The notes under the pieces were generated by a model that was not told the DNA's origin, did no database searches, and saw only the letters and a program-made list of their open reading frames with translations. Made by a program: the position numbers and the translations under genes. A stretch of DNA of 64,000 nt from Thermoproteota archaeon (lineage in GTDB: Archaea > Korarchaeota > Korarchaeia > Korarchaeales > Korarchaeaceae): assembly GCA_027491735.1 (NCBI GenBank), contig JAOZGP010000004.1, positions 30,396 through 94,395 of the forward strand, written 5' to 3'. This document shows, in pieces, positions 35,862 to 61,151 of this stretch. Each line of letters begins with the position of its first letter. Position 1 is the first letter of the stretch.

Positions 35862-37040
35862 TTACGTATAATTATTTCGTTTTTCAACGAAAGAAGGAAT
35901 TGAAGTCCCGTTTTTCTTCTGGGAAATTTTTAAATTTTTACTTAAAATCGATGATTTAGCAATTTTATATCTCTTTATAAGCTCCAAACACTCAGGAGTT
36001 GGGGTGCATCCTCCCCTGTCTGAACCACCTTTCCTGGACATGAATAGGTTAATCCCCAAAATCTTTTCAATAGATCTTACTCTCTTGTATATCGAGGCTG
36101 GTGATGTGTTAAGAGCTCTAGCAAGTCTGCTAAAGCTTCCTAGATCAGCTAATGCCGATAAAATTTCCAGATCATCCTCGTATATGCGTCTGCCGTCCTT
36201 GGTCACGAGGACCAAGGAGGCTGAGAAGGAGTACTTCGTTGATCGACTTATCTTGCTGCAGTTCAGCCGCACGATGCCTGCTATCTCGAGGGGTGAGTAG
36301 AGCATGTTGAGGGTTCCCTCCACAGGGCATTTCCCTACATATCCCGCCGAGTCCAGGAACACCATGCCGCAGTTCAACTTACAGTAGGGGCCGTCCAGGA
36401 CATATATTGGAAAATCTCTTCTGAAAGTGACCCGAACCATGTAGACGTCCATGAACTTTCTGAATGGCTCAGAGACCTCAAACCCCTGTCTCTCCATGAT
36501 GGCCACAGCGCTAGTGGAGCAGACCGTTGGAGGACAGAATATGGGCGGGGAGATCCACATCTGAACCCCCTTCTCCCTGATTAGATCTATACAGGTGAGA
36601 AGTTCCCTCTCATTTGTGTTTTGAGTGATAAACAGGGCTACTTTTACGTTTGCTCCTCTGGAGAGAAGGTATCTCATCATCTTCCTTGCCCCGGAGATGT
36701 CCGAGTGTGTGTAAGAAAAGAGAAAAATCTCATCCGGTATGAGCAGGCTTCTCCATCCTTCCTCCTCGGAGCCGGTTGAGGATGGAGTGAATACCCTGAG
36801 AGGGAGTCTTCTCTCCTTAACAGACATCATAAGATCCGTAACACCTGGATGGAGGAGCGGGTCCGGACATATGAAGCAAACCTCCGGTCTGTACCCGGAG
36901 CCTATCATGGCGTCCAACACGAGCTCGAGCTTATCTTTCTTGAGGTATGTGCGCTCTCCAGACTTGGTTTCTCTCCACGGGCACTGGGAGCAGGACGCAT
37001 CGCACCCCCTCACAGGTCGAACTATGAGTACGGGCTTCAT
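35862..37040 (-). CDS. Degenerate radical SAM-like Fe-S domain fused to C-terminal LysR/ModE-type HTH (CorR-like regulator)
   Basis: CDASCSQC; ICPDPLLHP; C..NC...D..G.V.KCP; GSFSRLARALNTSPASIYKRVRSIEKILGINLF..RKGG..RGG. Confidence 0.8.
   Translation of the reverse strand: MKPVLIVRPVRGCDASCSQCPWRETKSGERTYLKKDKLELVLDAMIGSGYRPEVCFICPDPLLHPGVTDLMMSVKERRLPLRVFTPSSTGSEEEGWRSLLIPDEIFLFSYTHSDISGARKMMRYLLSRGANVKVALFITQNTNERELLTCIDLIREKGVQMWISPPIFCPPTVCSTSAVAIMERQGFEVSEPFRKFMDVYMVRVTFRRDFPIYVLDGPYCKLNCGMVFLDSAGYVGKCPVEGTLNMLYSPLEIAGIVRLNCSKISRSTKYSFSASLVLVTKDGRRIYEDDLEILSALADLGSFSRLARALNTSPASIYKRVRSIEKILGINLFMSRKGGSDRGGCTPTPECLELIKRYKIAKSSILSKNLKISQKKNGTSIPSFVEKRNNYT
35867..35924 (-). promoter_or_regulatory. 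Candidate cooF promoter/operator inside 3' end of upstream regulator ORF
   Basis: TATA-like TAATTATA; TTTCGTT-N4-AACGAAA at 35875-35892; CGTTTTTC at 35878 and 35909. Confidence 0.45.
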
Positions 37041-37591
37041 GGAATCGCCTCCATCACCTCGGCCCTGAACTCACATAGGCCATCGCCAGCTGCCTGACAG
37101 CTCACCTCCTCCATGGGTCCTATTCTCACCCTGAGTATATCCTCGACCAGTGCTGCCAAGATGCCGGCCACGAACCTGCAGACCGGCTCCTTGGACTTCC
37201 TTCTCCTGGCCTCAAAGGAGTTGGAGACGGAGATCCTAACGAAGTTGTCCTCAATTTCTATCTTCTCTATCCTGCCGAACCCCAAGGTCTCAAATATGGA
37301 TGCAGCTATCCCGAAGAGCTCGTCCTTCTCGAATCTCTCTCTCATGGGAACTATTCCCTTCTCGTTGTGGGCCTTCATGAGCCTGTAGGCTGAGTAGTAT
37401 AGGACAGGGCCTATGGCCTTACTGCCAGCCACAACCGAGATTCCAGCCATGAAGTCGGCCCACCACTTGGTGGACATGATGAACACGTCCGGCAGAATTG
37501 CCCTGCCGAAAAGGGGTATATCAACCTCGACCCTTATACTTCCCTGATCGTTCTGGATCTTCCTGATGTTCTTCATCATCGGTAAAATCAA
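37037..37591 (-). CDS. V4R domain protein (CorQ-like)
   Basis: GFGR, NSFEA..PVCRFVAGIL, EVSCQAAGDGLCEF. Confidence 0.85.
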   Translation of the reverse strand: MILPMMKNIRKIQNDQGSIRVEVDIPLFGRAILPDVFIMSTKWWADFMAGISVVAGSKAIGPVLYYSAYRLMKAHNEKGIVPMRERFEKDELFGIAASIFETLGFGRIEKIEIEDNFVRISVSNSFEARRRKSKEPVCRFVAGILAALVEDILRVRIGPMEEVSCQAAGDGLCEFRAEVMEAIP

Positions 37592-38707: not shown

Positions 38708-40429
38708 TCATGTTGAGGCTCCGCTGGAGGCTTTCTTGAACTCCGAATACCTCCTCAACCCGTCCACAGCAACTATTATGCCAAGTATGAACAGGACTAG
38801 ACCGACAACGCCGAACACTCCATTGAGAGCGAGGGCTACTCCCTTGTAAGCAGGAGCGGCGAGAGGACCTTTTGCCAAGGGTTTTCCTAGGAAGATTGCC
38901 CTGAAGAACTTAGCTGATTCGAATATCAGAGCTGCCTCACATGTTATTATCATGAAGATTGCTGGCCAGAATGTGTATCCCGTCGGCTTCTTCTGCTTGG
39001 CCAAGTAGACAGTCACGAGCGTCAAGGCTAATCCGGCCAAGAGCTGATTGGATCCTCCAAAGAGGAGCCACAGATTTATCCAGGCGCCTGTGTAAGCCAA
39101 TATATCTCCTATCACAAGCCCTATTATGGCTCCTACGTACTTATTGCTTAGAAGAGGTCTTCCTCCTACCATATCGGCCCATACAAGCCAGAAGAACCTC
39201 ACCGCTAGGAAACCTATGGTGAGGGCGTAGAGCTCGAGCCACATAGCAAAGAAGGCCTTGATCCAAGGGGCTGCAGCCGCTCCTCCGGTATAAGGAGCTA
39301 CAAGCCTCACGGCCCCCTCCACAAGGCAGTTCCACTTAACTCCTCCAAGTGTTTTGATGTCTGCAGGAGAGAGAACCATGTAGGCTGCCAGAGAGGCAAG
39401 AGCGAGGAGGCCTTCCGTCAGCATGGATCCACCACCGACTGGAAGAGCGTCTGTCTCCACATCAAGCTGCGGAGCTGATCCCGAGGTGCTGACCAAGCTG
39501 TGCCATCCGGAGATTGCTCCACATGCTATCGAGACGGTTAGAATGGGCCATATCGGTCCAGGAGTCCAGAAGTCATTTTTAATGCCAAGCCACCCTCCCC
39601 ATCCTATCTGCTGTATTGGAACATTCGTGGCTGGGGACACGAGGGCCCCGACTATGAGCAGCAATATTCCGAATATGGCAGGGTAGGATGCCACGTAGAC
39701 GATCGGTTGCGTGACGTACATCAGGGAGATCGTGGCCCCTATGAACATCAGCACCGACGTGAAGACTATCCATACCATGAGGTTCGAGTTGGATATCGGG
39801 AATAGCTTTCCAAGAACTATACCAGCTATCACTATTATGAGTCCGATTACTGTTGAGGTTACCACGCCAGTCCTGGCCTTGTAGAGGAGGGCACCGCTCA
39901 CTATTCCGCCTATGTAGAGGAATATCATTGCCAGAACGGACTCGGGGTATATTTTGAAGAAGAGGCTACATAACACAGCAAAGACGGCTATTATAAGTAT
40001 TAGGTAGAAGAACAGGAAGCCTAGAAGGGATTTCCTTGCTCTAGGACTTATCAGCTCATAAGTCAGTGGCCCCATGGACTTCCCTTCATTCCTCACGGAG
40101 AGGAACAGGGAGGAGTAATCATGGATCCACCCTATGAAGAAGTTTCCGACCAAGATCCATATGAGGGCTGGAATCCATCCGTAAAACAGGGCTATGAATG
40201 GGCCGAGGATGGGACCAAGGCCTGCTATCCCCTTGAACTGGAATCCATAGAGGACGTACTTGCTCACAGGGAAGAAGGTTATCCCGTCCATGTACATGTG
40301 AGCCGGAGTTGCCCTCTTTGGATCGGGTTCCCAGACGTTCCTATCATACCATTTGGCGTAGAGGTAGTATGCTATGAGGTAGACCACTATCCCGAGCGCC
40401 ACAAACCAGATGGGATACATCCTCGACAT
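38708..40429 (-). CDS. cstA: Carbon starvation protein A family transporter
   Basis: TPAH..DG..F.P, IAGLGPILGP, GWIPA, HDY, IACGAISGWHSLV, FGGSNQLLA. Confidence 0.93.
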   Translation of the reverse strand: MSRMYPIWFVALGIVVYLIAYYLYAKWYDRNVWEPDPKRATPAHMYMDGITFFPVSKYVLYGFQFKGIAGLGPILGPFIALFYGWIPALIWILVGNFFIGWIHDYSSLFLSVRNEGKSMGPLTYELISPRARKSLLGFLFFYLILIIAVFAVLCSLFFKIYPESVLAMIFLYIGGIVSGALLYKARTGVVTSTVIGLIIVIAGIVLGKLFPISNSNLMVWIVFTSVLMFIGATISLMYVTQPIVYVASYPAIFGILLLIVGALVSPATNVPIQQIGWGGWLGIKNDFWTPGPIWPILTVSIACGAISGWHSLVSTSGSAPQLDVETDALPVGGGSMLTEGLLALASLAAYMVLSPADIKTLGGVKWNCLVEGAVRLVAPYTGGAAAAPWIKAFFAMWLELYALTIGFLAVRFFWLVWADMVGGRPLLSNKYVGAIIGLVIGDILAYTGAWINLWLLFGGSNQLLAGLALTLVTVYLAKQKKPTGYTFWPAIFMIITCEAALIFESAKFFRAIFLGKPLAKGPLAAPAYKGVALALNGVFGVVGLVLFILGIIVAVDGLRRYSEFKKASSGAST

Positions 40430-40540: not shown

Positions 40541-41146
40541 GTGCTTATGATGGAAGCGGGTTTCGTCGTGGTTCTAGCCATCACCACCCTGATGGTGTTG
40601 TGGTTCCTGGCCGGGAGGAGGATGAACTTCAAAAGGCAGAGTCATCTCTGGAGGGAGGTTGCTCCGAAAATAAAGAGATATTCGAGGAAGGTGAACTTCA
40701 GGGGATTGGGATCCGGAGGTTTTCAGGTGAGCTTTCGAGGAGGAGGTCCCCTTTCAAGGGTGGAGCTGTTTTTCGTCCTCTTGGATAGGGAGAATCTTCC
40801 CCACCTCCTGTTTCAAAAGGCTGTGGGGAGAGGAGATGAGGTCTATCTAAGGGCCTCCTTCACAAGAAGCCCTGACTTCAGGCTGAGGATATCCGAGAGA
40901 GAGGAGAGCATGCCAAAAGTGAACTGGATAGATCTTGGAGAGGAGCTCAAGGTGTTCTCTGAGGATCCCTCTAGGGCCGCCAAGATCCTCCTCAATGACA
41001 GGTTCAGAGATCTATTCAGTAAGATCAAGATAAGGGGTTTGTCGATAGCTCCAGAGGAGCCACATCTCATCATGAGATGTGATGCTGATCCGGAGAGCCT
41101 GGAGAACATCCTTAGAATGGCGGAGTTCCTGGCATCACATGTCTAA
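40541..41146 (+). CDS. Single-pass membrane protein, CCDC47/DUF1682-like by motif spacing
   Basis: N-terminal TM then GRRMN..W; G-x15-RENL-x12-DEV; family call is inference. Confidence 0.7.
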   Translation: MLMMEAGFVVVLAITTLMVLWFLAGRRMNFKRQSHLWREVAPKIKRYSRKVNFRGLGSGGFQVSFRGGGPLSRVELFFVLLDRENLPHLLFQKAVGRGDEVYLRASFTRSPDFRLRISEREESMPKVNWIDLGEELKVFSEDPSRAAKILLNDRFRDLFSKIKIRGLSIAPEEPHLIMRCDADPESLENILRMAEFLASHV

Positions 41147-41649
41147 TGACATGAGAGCTCCTGAAGGAGATCCTTCAGGAACAGCACTTCATCTTTGTTC
41201 CTGCCTAATATTTTTATCTCAAGTTTCCTGCCTGTGACGTCACAGAAGAAACATAGAATGACTTCCCAGAGAAGGCCCCTCTTGAAGAGACCCTCCCTAA
41301 CTCTCCTCAAGACGTAACCGCAGTCATGCCCATTAACCCTCATCACTCCGTGATCCTCCGATTTCCTTGTCATCTTCTCCACCCACCTCCAAGGATCAAA
41401 ACCTCTCCTAATCACGGGCTCTGATGCGCTGACCTTTAGCAGAACCTCTCCTCCATCATCTGAGATCACTCCAACGGTTATATGACCATTAGTGGCCCAG
41501 GTTATTCCTCCTGACTCCTTGGACGTCTCTACCTCAACCATTCTAAGAGGAAAAACTCTCCAACCCTCCGGAACGCTTATCGACACAAACCTAACAGTTC
41601 CTAGGATTATGTTCTTGGCGTCTAGGTCAACGTGTGCTCTCACGGGCAT
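41143..41649 (-). CDS. Hypothetical protein
   Basis: ORF 41143..41712, likely ATG 41649; VPEGW, FFCDVTGR, terminal CH. Confidence 0.7.
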   Translation of the reverse strand: MPVRAHVDLDAKNIILGTVRFVSISVPEGWRVFPLRMVEVETSKESGGITWATNGHITVGVISDDGGEVLLKVSASEPVIRRGFDPWRWVEKMTRKSEDHGVMRVNGHDCGYVLRRVREGLFKRGLLWEVILCFFCDVTGRKLEIKILGRNKDEVLFLKDLLQELSCH

Positions 41650-41736
41650 GCAGAAGATGGCTGAAGCTAAAAACATTCCACGAGGATTATGGCTTTGATT
41701 TTTTGTACCCATATTATATTATATAATATATCTAAG

Positions 41737-41759
41737 TTTGATCATGACATGTGATCAAA
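41737..41759. promoter_or_regulatory. Inverted repeat TTTGATCA-N7-TGATCAAA
   Basis: Perfect 8-bp arms next to AT palindrome TATATTATATAATATA (41715-41730). Confidence 0.4.
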
Positions 41760-42390
41760 GACCTCTGCTGAAGAAATCCCTGACATAGTTCTCCAGATCC
41801 CTCGTGCTGTGTCCTGGGCATATCCTCCCAGCAAACTTCTTGATGATGTACACTAGGTCCTCCACGAGTTCCTCCTTTTCCCATTGAGACTTCTTACCCA
41901 AGACCGTCTCTACCTTAACACCGTATCCCTTGATGAGCTTGTTCAAGTAATTAAAGCAGAAGCGGGAGATCTCCTCGGTATCAAACAAGACCACGACATC
42001 AACGCCTCCATTGACGATCATGTCCAGAAGCTTCATGAGACCTTTTCTCTCCTCTCCCTCGAATGAGGACATTTCCTTGATCACCTTGACCACTCTGTAG
42101 TTCTTCCTATGACAGTATCTCCTCAGGATCTCTACTCTTCTCTCAAGCTCATCCCTCAATCCAAGAAATCTGGACCTCACGTATATGACCGCTCTCCTCC
42201 CTTCCTCCCTCGCCTCCAGAATCCTCTTAACCTCCTCATTAGAGATTCTGTAGTGTCCTCCTCTGGTCCTCATGGCATTCACATAGCCAGATCTTATCCA
42301 GCATCTGATTGTCGATGGATGAAGATTTAACATCTCAGCGAGCTCGCTCACCTTTAGATATTTCTTATCGATTTTATCGCTTTTGCTCAT
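41755..42390 (-). CDS. IS607-family TnpA-like serine recombinase with MerR-like HTH; catalytic motifs degenerate; no tnpB
   Basis: YLKVSELAEMLNLHPSTIRCW..RTRGGHYR; IYVRSR instead of YARVS; EEISRF instead of DRLxRF; EELVEDL. Confidence 0.85.
   Translation of the reverse strand: MSKSDKIDKKYLKVSELAEMLNLHPSTIRCWIRSGYVNAMRTRGGHYRISNEEVKRILEAREEGRRAVIYVRSRFLGLRDELERRVEILRRYCHRKNYRVVKVIKEMSSFEGEERKGLMKLLDMIVNGGVDVVVLFDTEEISRFCFNYLNKLIKGYGVKVETVLGKKSQWEKEELVEDLVYIIKKFAGRICPGHSTRDLENYVRDFFSRGL
42365..42379. repeat. TTATCG direct repeat, 9-bp spacing
   Basis: TTATCG at 42365 and 42374, same motif and relative orientation as upstream of cstA. Confidence 0.5.
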
Positions 42391-42456
42391 AAATCTCACA
42401 TCTCTAGAGAAGAATCCTTATTAATTTATATATTGTGATGTATCCGAGGTGATTCT

Positions 42457-42765
42457 GTGATATTCAGGAGGAAGAAGAAGGAAGAGAATAAGGCCGGGAA
42501 AAAAGAAGGAGCGACTAGTGAGGCTAAGGAGGCAGTTAAGGGTCTTATCTATGGAATGTCAGCCCACGCGGTGACAAGACAGATGCTGAAGACCAGGATG
42601 TACCTTGAGCACCTCTTCATGCTCATAACCCTGGGCGACATGCTTGGGATACCGATACTCCCCCCCTACTACTCGCTAAAGCTCCTTCCGTACGCTGTTC
42701 CAAACATAAAGACCTGGAAGAGGAGCCTTTTCAAGGAGAGGGACATAACTGACATGTTCTACTGA
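42457..42765 (+). CDS. Small CstA/ArsA-associated protein, copy 1
   Basis: EHLFMLITLGDMLGIPILPPYYSLKLLPY..W; GAGGTGA SD. Confidence 0.8.
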   Translation: MIFRRKKKEENKAGKKEGATSEAKEAVKGLIYGMSAHAVTRQMLKTRMYLEHLFMLITLGDMLGIPILPPYYSLKLLPYAVPNIKTWKRSLFKERDITDMFY

Positions 42766-42774
42766 GGTGCCGAT

Positions 42775-43776
42775 ATGAAGTCCCTTAAGGAGTTCCTGGA
42801 CGAGAGGCCTGACATGAAGGTGATAATCAACGCTGGGAAGGGAGGGCTTGGGAAGACCACATCGAGTGCAGCAATGTCCTACTGGTTTGCCAAACATGGG
42901 AAGAGACCTCTCTGCTTCAGCACAGATCCGCAAGCATCGCTAAGTGATATATTTGAGAGTGATCTGTTCGGAAAGGGAATTCAAGAGATAGAGAAGAACT
43001 TATTTGTCGTCGAGATAGACGCAGATAGGAGAATTCAAGAGTTCCAGGAGGAGATCAGGAATAAGATAAAGGAAATGTATGGACTTGACGAAATACCTGA
43101 AGAGATAGACGAATACATAACCACCTCTGCCTATGAGCCAGCGATGCATGAATCAGCGACCTACGACGCTATGGCTGAGCTTTTGGCTGAGGGAAAGTAC
43201 AATCCGTACATCTTCGACATGCCACCCTTCGGACATGGTGTGAGGATGATAAGCATGGCCAAGATTCTGGACGCCTGGATAGATAAGATGGAAGAGACCA
43301 GGAGAAAAGCCGCTCAATATGCTGAGGCTGCGGCCTCACTGAGAGGAGCTGCAGCGAAGACGGAAGAGGAGGTCCTGAAGGAGCTCAGGTCCATAAGGAG
43401 GAGGTTGGACTTCTTCAGTGAGATCCTATCAAATCCTGAATACTCTGCCTTCTTCATGGTGATAATACCGGAGAAGATGGCGATATTGGACACCGAGAGG
43501 GCTTTAGGAATGTTTAAAAGGCTAGGAATAGAGATGGCTGGCGTGATAGTCAATCAGGTGTATCCAAGGGAGCTCCTGAAGAGGCCTGATCTAAGTGACT
43601 TCCTGAGGAAGAGGATAGAGATGCAGCAGAAGTACCTCAAGGAGATAAAGGAGAAATTTGGTGAGTATGTGAGGGCTATAGTTCCGATGTTCGATAGGGA
43701 GCCGAAGGGGATGGAGATGCTGGCTAAGGTAGCTCATCACCTGTTCGAGGAGCCAGGTTTGGAGGTGTTAGAATGA
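42775..43776 (+). CDS. ArsA/Get3-family ATPase, copy 1
   Basis: GKGGLGKT, STDPQASLSD, DMPPFGH, PEKM, VNQ. Confidence 0.92.
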   Translation: MKSLKEFLDERPDMKVIINAGKGGLGKTTSSAAMSYWFAKHGKRPLCFSTDPQASLSDIFESDLFGKGIQEIEKNLFVVEIDADRRIQEFQEEIRNKIKEMYGLDEIPEEIDEYITTSAYEPAMHESATYDAMAELLAEGKYNPYIFDMPPFGHGVRMISMAKILDAWIDKMEETRRKAAQYAEAAASLRGAAAKTEEEVLKELRSIRRRLDFFSEILSNPEYSAFFMVIIPEKMAILDTERALGMFKRLGIEMAGVIVNQVYPRELLKRPDLSDFLRKRIEMQQKYLKEIKEKFGEYVRAIVPMFDREPKGMEMLAKVAHHLFEEPGLEVLE

Positions 43777-44822
43777 GCGAGGAGAGCATGATTCTCGTGG
43801 AGAAGCCCGTTGGATTTAGGGATTATGTGACGACCCACGAGTCCTTGAAGTTCTTCTTCACCGGCGGAAAAGGAGGGGTCGGAAAGACCGTGGCCGCTGC
43901 AGGAATAGCAGCCTACTTTGCCAAGGAGGGAAAGAAGGTTCTGTTGGCCTCCCTTAACCCAGTGCACTCCCTCTCCAGCTTGTTTAGTCAGGATCTCTCT
44001 GGAGGAGAGATAAAACTGGTGGAGGGGATAGAAAATCTGGACGCAATTGAGGTCGACATAAGCGACAAGGTGGCGAGTTACAAGAGACAGCTAGCTGATA
44101 GGCTCTCCTGGTTCCTGAAGTGGGCAGACATACCACTGAAAGCATCTGAATTTATAGATATAGCTGCTACAAACCCCGCTTTTGAGGAAAGCGCTATGTT
44201 CGATGCCACTGTGGACATATTACTCCAGCAAGGAGAGAACTATGACAAAATAGTTTTTGACTGCGCTGCTGTGGCAAATGCGGTTAGACTTCTTGGGCTC
44301 AACAAGATCTACGGGCTCTGGCTTCAGAGGATGATAAAAAGCAGAGAAGAGGCTCTTTCGCTAAGGGTAAAGCTTTCCTTCAGGAAAGATAAGGCCATGG
44401 AGGAGATAAAGAAGGATCCTTTGATGAAGGACCTGCTTGGGCTCAAGGAGAGGACCGATAGGGCAAGCGAGGTGCTCGGAGATCCTAGCAGGACGGCCTT
44501 CTTCTTCGTGACCCTGCCACTAGCTCTTCCAATATCAGTCGTTGAGAGGTTCATAAACATGGTCAAGGGCTTCAACATAGCGATAGGAGGGGTTGTTGTC
44601 AATGGGGTCATAAGAAGGGAGCTCGCTGAGAGGGGTACTGAATATCTGAGGAACAAGTACGAGGAGCAGAAGAGATACCTTGAGATGATAGAGGATAAGA
44701 TGGGCCCACTTGTCAGAGCCGTTATTCCTCTGTATGAGACCGAGATAGTTGGAACTGAGATGATCCTCAGAATAGCGGATGATCTGTCGACATGGACCCC
44801 CGAGAAAGGACTGTTCCTTTGA
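43773..44822 (+). CDS. ArsA/Get3-family ATPase, copy 2, deviant switch motifs
   Basis: GKGGVGKT, SLNPVHSLS, DCAAVAN. Confidence 0.9.
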   Translation: MSEESMILVEKPVGFRDYVTTHESLKFFFTGGKGGVGKTVAAAGIAAYFAKEGKKVLLASLNPVHSLSSLFSQDLSGGEIKLVEGIENLDAIEVDISDKVASYKRQLADRLSWFLKWADIPLKASEFIDIAATNPAFEESAMFDATVDILLQQGENYDKIVFDCAAVANAVRLLGLNKIYGLWLQRMIKSREEALSLRVKLSFRKDKAMEEIKKDPLMKDLLGLKERTDRASEVLGDPSRTAFFFVTLPLALPISVVERFINMVKGFNIAIGGVVVNGVIRRELAERGTEYLRNKYEEQKRYLEMIEDKMGPLVRAVIPLYETEIVGTEMILRIADDLSTWTPEKGLFL

Positions 44823-44832
44823 GGAGATTGCT

Positions 44833-45084
44833 TTGGGGTTAAAGGAGCATCTAAAGGATTTCTTTTTTGGTTTTGCTGTCTTACCTCATCTAAGAACTGT
44901 TGTAAAGATGCGCTTTGAGGAGGACATGTTCATGATGACCTTGACCATAGGGGACATGATCGGTCTGCCCATAATGCCCCCCGTTTACAAGCTCTCCCTG
45001 CTCCCCTACTGGTTGCCTCTTATAAGGAGATGGAAGAAAGAGCTGCTTGGTGAGAAGGGCGCTCTTGAGAAGATAGAGGAATAG
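44833..45084 (+). CDS. Small CstA/ArsA-associated protein, copy 2
   Basis: EDMFMMTLTIGDMIGLPIMPPVYKLSLLPY..W; TTG 44833 after GAGGAG. Confidence 0.8.
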   Translation: MGLKEHLKDFFFGFAVLPHLRTVVKMRFEEDMFMMTLTIGDMIGLPIMPPVYKLSLLPYWLPLIRRWKKELLGEKGALEKIEE

Positions 45085-60281: not shown

Positions 60282-61151
60282 CTATAGGTTCTTGAGGATC
60301 TCAGATCCTATCCGCATCAGGAGATTATTGTCCCTAAGCTCGGTGCAGTACATGGGAAGCTCCATCACCTTCAACCCGAGGTTTCTGAGCTCCCTCAGGT
60401 ACTTCCGCTGAACCTCCATCCTTTTCCTGAGGAAGGCACAGGAGGCATCTTCTATCACAAAGTTCACAATTAGGAGCTTTATCCTCAATCCTTCCTTCTC
60501 AAAATCCCTTTTTATTCTCTTCAGCTGCTCGACTCCAAGTCTCTCAGGGATTGTTACGGCCACAAACTCTATATCCTTCAGGAATGAGAAGATCTCCTCG
60601 GCCAGGAACCTCCAGCTTTCCACGATTGAGAGGACAGACCTCCTGCCCTCCTCAGTGAGGGGTTTGCGTAACTTCGCGTAGAGCTTGGCTGCTCTGTTCA
60701 AGTGATCCACAAAGAGGATCGGCATCCTCAGAAGCCTGAAAGTATGCCCTGCTGGAGCGGAATCCCAGACCACGAGATCGTAGTTGCCCGATCTGGCCTC
60801 CTTCATCACAAAATAGAGCATGAACTCCTCATCTATTCCAGGAGCCGTGCCTATGTAGTCCAGGATGCTCCTGTCCACATCGGCCACTGCCCTGGCCACC
60901 TGATATACCTCCTCGCCGAACTCGTTCTTCCACATGTCTAGAACCTTAGACAGAGAGAGCTCCATCGCCCACAATCCCTTCTCGACCTCAACCTTCTCAT
61001 CCCTGACGTCTGTGGTGAGGAGGTCGGAGAGGGAAGGAGCCTGGTCCGTAGATATCAGAAGCCTCTTACCGCTTGAGGCCAGGGCTGTGGCTGTCGACAG
61101 GGTGGTCTTCCCAACACCACCCTTTCCAACGAACATAAGAACCCGAGTCAT
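60282..61151 (-). CDS. ArsA/Get3-family ATPase, copy 3
   Basis: GKGGVGKT, STDQAPSLSD, APGIDE, DSAPAGH; start moved to ATG 61151. Confidence 0.92.
   Translation of the reverse strand: MTRVLMFVGKGGVGKTTLSTATALASSGKRLLISTDQAPSLSDLLTTDVRDEKVEVEKGLWAMELSLSKVLDMWKNEFGEEVYQVARAVADVDRSILDYIGTAPGIDEEFMLYFVMKEARSGNYDLVVWDSAPAGHTFRLLRMPILFVDHLNRAAKLYAKLRKPLTEEGRRSVLSIVESWRFLAEEIFSFLKDIEFVAVTIPERLGVEQLKRIKRDFEKEGLRIKLLIVNFVIEDASCAFLRKRMEVQRKYLRELRNLGLKVMELPMYCTELRDNNLLMRIGSEILKNL

Follow-up and report, generated by a model that had tools for sequence, protein, structure and literature searches.

The systems described so far that lie closest to the locus treated here are a permease gene cluster known from comparative genomics and a eukaryotic factor of membrane-protein biogenesis. 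In the survey by Castillo and Saier (2010; PMC2963123), the permease gene cstA is accompanied in 26 cases by a single-domain arsA homologue of ~330 amino acids (aa), and in 24 of those 26 also by CstX, a protein of ~90 aa with a single transmembrane segment; a further single-transmembrane protein of ~210 aa, CstY, is reported from five archaea including Thermococcus kodakarensis and co-evolves with CstA. These cstA-cstX-(cstY)-arsA operons correspond to ArsA clusters 14–18 of the survey, for which the survey proposes that CstA draws its energy from the ATPase, with CstX as a linker and CstY as a dispensable auxiliary. CCDC47, a subunit of the PAT complex at the Sec61 multipass translocon, is described in PMC9816642 as a factor for multipass-protein biogenesis that sits on Sec61 and pairs with Asterix; it is stated there to be "present in most eukaryotes" and is treated as a eukaryotic translocon accessory. 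We analysed a stretch of 64,000 nucleotides from a Korarchaeota genome (GCA_027491735.1, contig JAOZGP010000004.1, positions 30,396 to 94,395), which we call the window, and focus on one gene in it, located at 40541..41146. Its product is probably, judged mainly by predicted structure, a minimal prokaryotic protein of the CCDC47 fold and a true remote homologue of CCDC47, and it fits a CstY-type accessory of a conserved CstA module. The features of this focal gene are listed below.

40541..41146, plus strand: focal gene, encoding the putative mini-CCDC47-fold protein (open reading frame (ORF) list, family search, Pfam matches of relatives, AlphaFold2 model).
40553..40612, plus strand: N-terminal transmembrane helix, residues 5–24 (hydrophobic sequence; helix 2–44 in the model).
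40739..40843, plus strand: conserved core block GGGPLSRVELFFVLLDRENLPHLLFQKAVGRGDEV, residues 67–101, with P70, E75, R83, E84 and D99 (alignment conservation).

The ORF counts 201 aa from a GTG start; ATG codons preceded by an AGGTG-like stretch are present at 40547 and 40550, one of them is likely to be the true start, and a 198-aa form of the protein is present in the protein database. The basic stretch GRRMNFKR, of which GRRMN represents residues 25–29, stands directly after the transmembrane helix and is followed by W at residue 37. Because basic residues follow the helix, we infer from the positive-inside rule that the N-terminus is outside and the domain cytoplasmic. The predicted architecture comprises a very short outside N-terminus, one transmembrane helix and an alpha/beta domain of ~175 residues, which would lie at the cytoplasmic face.

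The evidence that carries the proposed relationship to CCDC47 comes chiefly from this model, which was calculated by AlphaFold2 without templates on an alignment of 61 family sequences (A1) and reached a predicted local distance difference test score (pLDDT) of 95.2 and a predicted template-modelling score (pTM) of 0.87; the model from the single sequence (pLDDT 41.6) was not usable. The four best matches of a Foldseek search against the PDB were 7tm3_4 (E 4.3e-8, TM-score 0.78), 9i78_4 (9e-7), 6w6l_7 (3e-3) and the mycobacterial TtfA (6t84; 5.6e-3), and VIA-align gave Z values of 16.8, 14.9, 11.9 and 11.7 for these chains, respectively, with 7.1 for the next fold. The chain 9i78_4 is named CCDC47 in the PDB table; for 7tm3_4 and 6w6l_7, which are named in no table, we infer the same identity from the chain numbering and from PMC9816642, which states that entry 7TM3 contains CCDC47 and Asterix. 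In the VIA-align superposition on 7tm3_4, 197 of the 201 residues align with a root-mean-square deviation of 2.3 Å, model residues 4..201 lying on chain residues 135..393, and the helix of the focal protein superposes on the transmembrane helix of the chain. A protein-language-model atlas gave as nearest named families only TtfA and CCDC47, both at a weak 0.77, and the three nearest clusters in it are unnamed, with Methanobacteriota, Chloroflexota and Candidatus Heimdallarchaeota as their commonest known phyla.

The second line of evidence comes from the relatives of the focal protein. By searching 1.84 billion representative proteins with phmmer (E<=1e-3), we found 69 relatives, nearly all of which have 195–233 aa and match from end to end. 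In A1 (n=61), D99 and P174 are invariant, and G25, N29, R83 and E84 are conserved in at least 90% of the sequences. A previous reading of this DNA made without database searches (the sequence-only reading) had pointed out in this ORF a transmembrane helix, the motif GRRMN..W and a long following block; all of these are present, and because the landmarks coincide with the most conserved columns of the family, they represent a family signature and not chance. The Pfam family CCDC47 (PF07946, formerly DUF1682; 326 profile positions, gathering score 27.7 bits) is matched at E<=0.1 by 19 of the 61 members of A1, and 14 other Pfam families appeared in the same scan, each matched by one member. Among the relatives scanned singly, P0021 exceeds the PF07946 cut-off with 33.5 bits (E 3.3e-8), its residues 4–196 being aligned to profile positions 5–227, and P0013 (26.8 bits) and P0011 (25.2 bits) come just below it; the C-terminal half of P0013 is also above the cut-off of DUF3137. 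Judged from these sequence matches, membership in PF07946 would hold at the level of the family, via the relatives, and not for the focal sequence alone.

The sequence-only reading had proposed homology with CCDC47, and the fold and the Pfam matches of the relatives bear this proposal out, even though the profile match to CCDC47/DUF1682 that it named as a check was obtained with relatives and not with the focal protein. It had moreover proposed an ungapped alignment of the protein with human CCDC47. Of that alignment, the G...N part is recovered against the fungal chain 9i78_4, in which the W is off by one, and the equivalence of the second block is supported by the structure and by the Pfam ranges of the relatives only.

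Concerning distribution, the family is present in 21 of 43 species genomes of the window's own phylum, a copy from the same genus being 52% identical to the focal protein, and in 46 of 401 sampled archaeal genomes, among them 18 of the 20 belonging to one taxonomic family (f11), whose complete genomes have ~2 Mb. The second main branch of the family tree is formed by Chloroflexota/Anaerolineae (22 named loci), which were found with a six-sequence alignment as query. Homologues of full length and without stop codons occur in these 21 genomes and also in 56 of 201 Anaerolineae-class genomes. A word-based protein search with the focal protein alone returned only the protein itself, and the same search with A1 returned 36 unnamed "hypothetical" proteins, one of them labelled Candidatus Rokubacteria. 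As a separate observation, the members in one genus of the phylum (g4; loci L036, L039, L040 and L042) have only 166–169 aa, since the middle of the domain is lost (alignment A7), and their profile match is limited to positions 7–114. An SPFH relationship was also considered, because the best PDB sequence matches of A8, a profile of family members, were to stomatin/SPFH proteins (E 0.028–0.18) over the RE...D block; no SPFH chain is found among the fold-search matches shown, and we therefore rejected this candidate as a motif coincidence.

The focal gene stands in a cluster composed of the following genes.

38708..40429, minus strand: CstA-family permease, 573 aa (PF02554, E 3.3e-96), divergent from the focal gene.
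41143..41712, minus strand: U189, a conserved soluble protein of no assigned family, convergent with the focal gene and its neighbour in own-phylum and Anaerolineae loci.
41755..42399, minus strand: IS607-family serine-recombinase transposase gene (NF033518, 128 bits against a cut-off of 110).
42457..42765, plus strand: small conserved protein 1, 102 aa, fitting "CstX" (alignment A4; Anaerolineae copies).
42775..43776, plus strand: ArsA/Get3-type ATPase 1, 333 aa, with switch-I D51 (PF02374, 239 bits).
43773..44822, plus strand: ArsA/Get3-type ATPase 2, 349 aa, with N62 at the place of the switch-I Asp (PF02374, 190.7 bits).
44779..45084, plus strand: small conserved protein 2, 101 aa, a paralogue of small protein 1 (alignment A4).

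Both ATPases, the genes of which overlap by 4 bases at the start of the second, match PF02374 and TIGR00345 above the cut-offs, and their closest solved relatives are 3zq6 and 3ug6, which are named arsenical pump-driving ATPases in the PDB table and which we take to be archaeal Get3 homologues. D51 is invariant in 25 of 25 sequences of ATPase 1 and N62 in 25 of 25 of ATPase 2, archaea and Anaerolineae being included in both. Because this Asn is invariant and the Asp-to-Asn change blocks hydrolysis in yeast Get3, the sequences suggest an obligate pair, probably an asymmetric dimer in which one site works and the other is inactive. In the small proteins one moderately hydrophobic segment is conserved; they match NCBIfam cory-CC-star below its cut-off (E 8e-8 for protein 1 and 3e-5 for protein 2) and do not have the terminal Cys-Cys. 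A BagAB reading was rejected on account of NCBIfam BagA and BagB scores far below the cut-offs. U189 belongs to no Pfam or NCBIfam family, and the atlas gave for it only weak PsbP/DUF4946 leads; the N-termini of its orthologues have no hydrophobic leader, and its translation probably begins further inside the ORF. No match was obtained when the window was scanned for Rfam families and tRNAs.

The IS607 gene has inserted into the cluster and does not belong to the module, and an ORF homologous to it is present, among the 49 loci compared below, only in the same-genus locus L031. In L031 the IS607-like gene is located at the outer edge of the block of small-protein and ATPase genes, which as a whole has the opposite orientation to that in the window, an arrangement consistent with a recombinase-linked inversion. 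Several other genes may be mentioned in passing. A third, stand-alone gene of the ArsA/Get3 family (60297–61148, minus strand; 284 aa as translated; PF02374, 168.6 bits) lies ~15 kb from the pair and may be a general-purpose homologue, and an EMC3/DUF106 insertase gene is found elsewhere in the genome. This gene, whose family was matched among the control genomes only by the three archaeal ones, and a full-length match to archaeal SSU rRNA mark the genome as archaeal. Beyond the permease gene, 35862–37040 on the minus strand encodes a protein of 392 aa with a weak radical-SAM N-terminus and a LysR/ModE-type helix-turn-helix C-terminus, and 37037–37591, also on the minus strand, encodes a V4R-domain protein with weak MsvR similarity, its start in coordinates being overlapped by the end of the gene for the 392-aa protein.

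To see how far this arrangement is maintained, we compared 49 loci carrying the family: 16 of the own phylum (the window and 15 others), 22 of Anaerolineae and 11 of other archaeal families. An ArsA-family gene lies within the fetched stretch at 40 of the 49 (12 of 16, 19 of 22 and 9 of 11, respectively); the co-location with Get3-like genes that the sequence-only reading had noticed is thus conserved across archaea and bacteria, more broadly than it had noted. Of the 16 own-phylum loci, 14 have U189, 14 a small protein, 12 the ATPase pair and 11 CstA. Among the 22 Anaerolineae loci, ATPase genes are found in 19, U189 in 15 and CstA in 12, the loci without ATPase genes being L046, L066 and L059, the last on a 3.2-kb contig. 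CstA, small protein, ATPase and family member are held together by 9 of the 11 other archaeal loci. In f11 (L082–L085 and L092) they form a co-directional operon in the order CstA, small protein, single ATPase, an ORF of 92–102 aa and the CCDC47-fold protein (family ORFs of 215–243 aa), with stops and starts that abut or overlap; the single ATPase keeps the normal Asp, and the two 92–102-aa ORFs that were scanned (L082 and L084) are DUF59/FeS_assembly_P (28.5 bits against a cut-off of 23.5). At another locus, L034, the homologue of the focal gene overlaps ATPase 2 by 25 bases. When Anaerolineae products are compared with those of the window, identities are 55–67% for the small protein (better-matching paralogue), 43–49% for each ATPase, 34–39% for CstA, 20–32% for the focal protein and 21–29% for U189, so that the small proteins, with up to 67% between archaea and Anaerolineae, are the best-conserved part of the module.

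The accessory part of the module is more variable. In the 201 Anaerolineae-class genomes the family was counted in 56 and the small protein in 86: 46 genomes have both, 10 have the family without the small protein, 40 the small protein without the family, and 105 have neither; this is a hand count, for which no test statistic is given because related genomes are not independent. We fetched loci from 12 of the 40 genomes with the small protein only, and in all 12 the small protein(s) are accompanied by at least ATPase 1; neither the focal family nor U189 was found in them at E<=0.01. In 10 of the 12 (L070–L079) the ATPase genes are followed by a gene for a TPR protein of ~200–220 aa with about three hydrophobic segments, one of these being a weak match to a 418-aa ORF, and in four Anaerolineae loci that do have the CCDC47-fold protein (L050, L054, L063 and L067) a TPR protein occupies the place of U189. 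Three occupants of the membrane-anchored accessory slot can therefore be told apart: the CCDC47-fold protein with U189, the CCDC47-fold protein with a TPR protein, and a TPR protein alone. These three fillings support an adaptor or docking role at the membrane, and they also show that the module can do without the focal family.

On this basis we consider it reasonably probable, by analogy, that the focal protein serves the CstA module as a membrane-anchored subunit for docking or assembly. The module would comprise the CstA permease, one to three small CstX proteins and one or two Get3/ArsA-type ATPases, joined in this lineage by U189; the focal protein would be placed on the cytoplasmic face of the multipass CstA and would tether the ATPase dimer and its small partners to the membrane. 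We propose this docking picture because of two precedents, CCDC47 on Sec61 with Asterix and TtfA with MmpL3. The ATPase may either power transport, as ArsA does for ArsB, or assist the insertion or assembly of CstA or CstX. A complex prediction for ATPase 1, ATPase 2 and residues 26–201 of the focal protein, made from 25-row matched alignments and without controls, returned "no answer" (scores 0.00 and 0.00).

A different view of the same genes, in line with the ancestral insertion/chaperone module that the sequence-only reading had suggested, is that they constitute a biogenesis machine resembling the GET (guided entry of tail-anchored proteins) and PAT systems, in which the Get3-like dimer captures a hydrophobic client and the CCDC47-like protein acts as its membrane receptor or chaperone; the clients would be CstX, with its hydrophobic segment no more than ~50 residues away from the C-terminus, or parts of CstA. 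We regard this view as unlikely, although several findings speak for it. The best solved relatives of the ATPases are the presumed archaeal Get3 homologues 3zq6 and 3ug6, the small proteins have the one moderately hydrophobic conserved segment, and the accessory slot is taken in the variants by a membrane-anchored TPR protein, a type of protein that the GET pathway also employs, Sgt2 being an example. CCDC47 itself acts in multipass-protein biogenesis according to PMC9816642. Against this, the small proteins are highly conserved between archaea and Anaerolineae and have invariant G, D and P inside the "hydrophobic" segment, and therefore a structured subunit is likelier than a generic client. 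Get3 has a CXXC zinc motif, and no conserved Cys, and thus no conserved Cys pair, is found in either ATPase alignment (25 sequences each). A search of the window's genome (87.85% complete) for Asterix (PF03669) at E<=10 gave no match, though a very divergent or non-homologous partner might escape it, and general targeting could be served by the separate EMC3/DUF106 insertase and the stand-alone ArsA homologue. Finally, the components co-evolve with CstA according to Castillo and Saier (PMC2963123), whose preferred explanation is energised transport.

Another explanation, which we consider decidedly improbable, is that the likeness to CCDC47 reflects convergence on a common membrane-anchored alpha/beta fold and that the protein is a lineage-specific accessory of the CstA module. 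The observations in favour of this explanation mostly weigh against our interpretation too, and we collect them here together with the other points against the latter. Identity to the CCDC47 chains in the structural alignments is 10–16%. Pfam and NCBIfam scans of the focal protein gave no family, most members have no Pfam match, and against PF07946 the focal protein gives no match at E<=1; a search for PF07946 through the window's genome found nothing, and one of the 69 relatives scanned singly exceeds the cut-off. Profile searches against PDB sequences were not significant: the top match of A1 is the fungal CCDC47 chain 9i78_4 at E 0.79, extending over 37 transmembrane-proximal residues (the helix and the G...N motif), A8 matches no CCDC47 chain, and P0021 alone gave 0 matches. 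TtfA, whose function is different, also attains Z 11.7. The protein has neither the signal peptide nor the acidic lumenal domain of CCDC47, and it ends at residue 201 without the C-terminal coiled coil (profile positions ~230–326); its relatives reach profile positions 5–227 at most, the structural match stops at chain residue 393, and the missing C-terminal third of the profile is presumably the coiled coil that reaches the ribosome. The absence of an Asterix match, mentioned above, belongs here as well. As to the module, the focal gene of the window is transcribed separately from the ATPase genes, the IS607-like gene lying between them, stand-alone copies of the family exist in L046, L066 and L088, the module is found without the family in the 40 Anaerolineae genomes having the small protein alone, and our comparison with CstY goes by description and not by sequence. 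Convergence is nevertheless opposed by three facts: the Pfam matches are co-linear from the transmembrane helix on and all to the same family, one member exceeds the curated cut-off at E 3.3e-8, and the structural match covers nearly the whole protein including the helix, in the same order and topology and ~10 Z units above unrelated folds. That the focal ORF is a spurious or decaying gene beside an insertion sequence, as its GTG start and the IS607-like gene 600 bases downstream might suggest, is hardly conceivable in view of the intact full-length homologues in its own phylum and in Anaerolineae, the same-genus copy, the confident model and the ATG starts with a ribosome-binding-like site.

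If the focal protein is a remote homologue of CCDC47, the "CstY" of 2010 gains both a fold and a working hypothesis. A genuine minimal form would reveal the conserved core of CCDC47 without its eukaryotic additions, and in the cluster such a protein would be genetically linked, in nature, to Get3-type ATPases and to CstA as the one multipass client or partner. One may go further and propose that eukaryotic CCDC47 descends from a prokaryotic CstY-type protein, so that the organiser of the PAT complex would have started out by anchoring in the membrane a Get3-type ATPase module for a multipass permease; we put this forward as a speculation of low probability. If true, it would mean that a GET-like ATPase and a PAT-like factor were once parts of one prokaryotic machine that assembled or powered a membrane protein. 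One of the look-alike clusters in the atlas has Candidatus Heimdallarchaeota as its commonest known phylum. The match to TtfA may indicate that membrane-anchored adaptors of multipass membrane proteins form a wider class. Our literature search, which did not extend to subscription journals, gave no publication in which CstY or another prokaryotic protein is connected with CCDC47 and none joining TtfA with CCDC47; papers naming DUF1682 appear to deal with plants, and in the consulted texts on CCDC47 that mention archaea, these appear only in connection with Oxa1/TMCO1. Tractable holders for experiments exist, since Thermococcus kodakarensis is among the holders of CstY listed in PMC2963123.

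We finally compare the locus with the known systems one by one. With CCDC47 the focal protein shares one transmembrane helix placed directly before the same alpha/beta cytosolic domain and a conserved G...N just after the helix; it differs in size (~200 aa against ~480 aa) and in setting, because CCDC47 acts at the ribosome-bound translocon whereas the focal gene lies beside genes for a CstA permease and Get3-like ATPases. TtfA (trehalose monomycolate transport factor A; 6t84, PF28092) has an N-terminal membrane anchor and is a partner of the multipass transporter MmpL3; it resembles the focal protein in the globular fold, aligned over 143 residues, and shares with CCDC47 the position of nearest named family in the atlas. 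It differs in being actinobacterial and in serving another transporter, we know of no ATPase partner for it, and it had no sequence match in the PDB profile searches with A1 and A8 while the Pfam version scanned gave no TtfA family for the members. From ArsA–ArsB pumps the cluster is distinguished by having no arsB, acr3 or arsR among the 12 neighbours scanned, and from Get3/TRC40 and ArsA by its heterodimer-like pair, the second member of which always has Asn at switch-I. The closest counterpart is the module of Castillo and Saier (PMC2963123), for the CstA permease, the CstX-like proteins of ~90 aa, the single-domain ArsA homologues of ~330 aa and the lack of ars genes are common to both; the small proteins of the window correspond to CstX in size and position, and the focal protein to CstY in size, topology and position. 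The differences are, on our side, the ATPase pair with an Asn member, the extra soluble protein and the IS607-like insertion, and, for CstY, that the survey reports it from five archaea only and assigns it no fold or family, whereas the family treated here is present also in Anaerolineae. The gene cluster is therefore already known from comparative genomics, and what we add is the reading of its CstY component as a probable minimal CCDC47.

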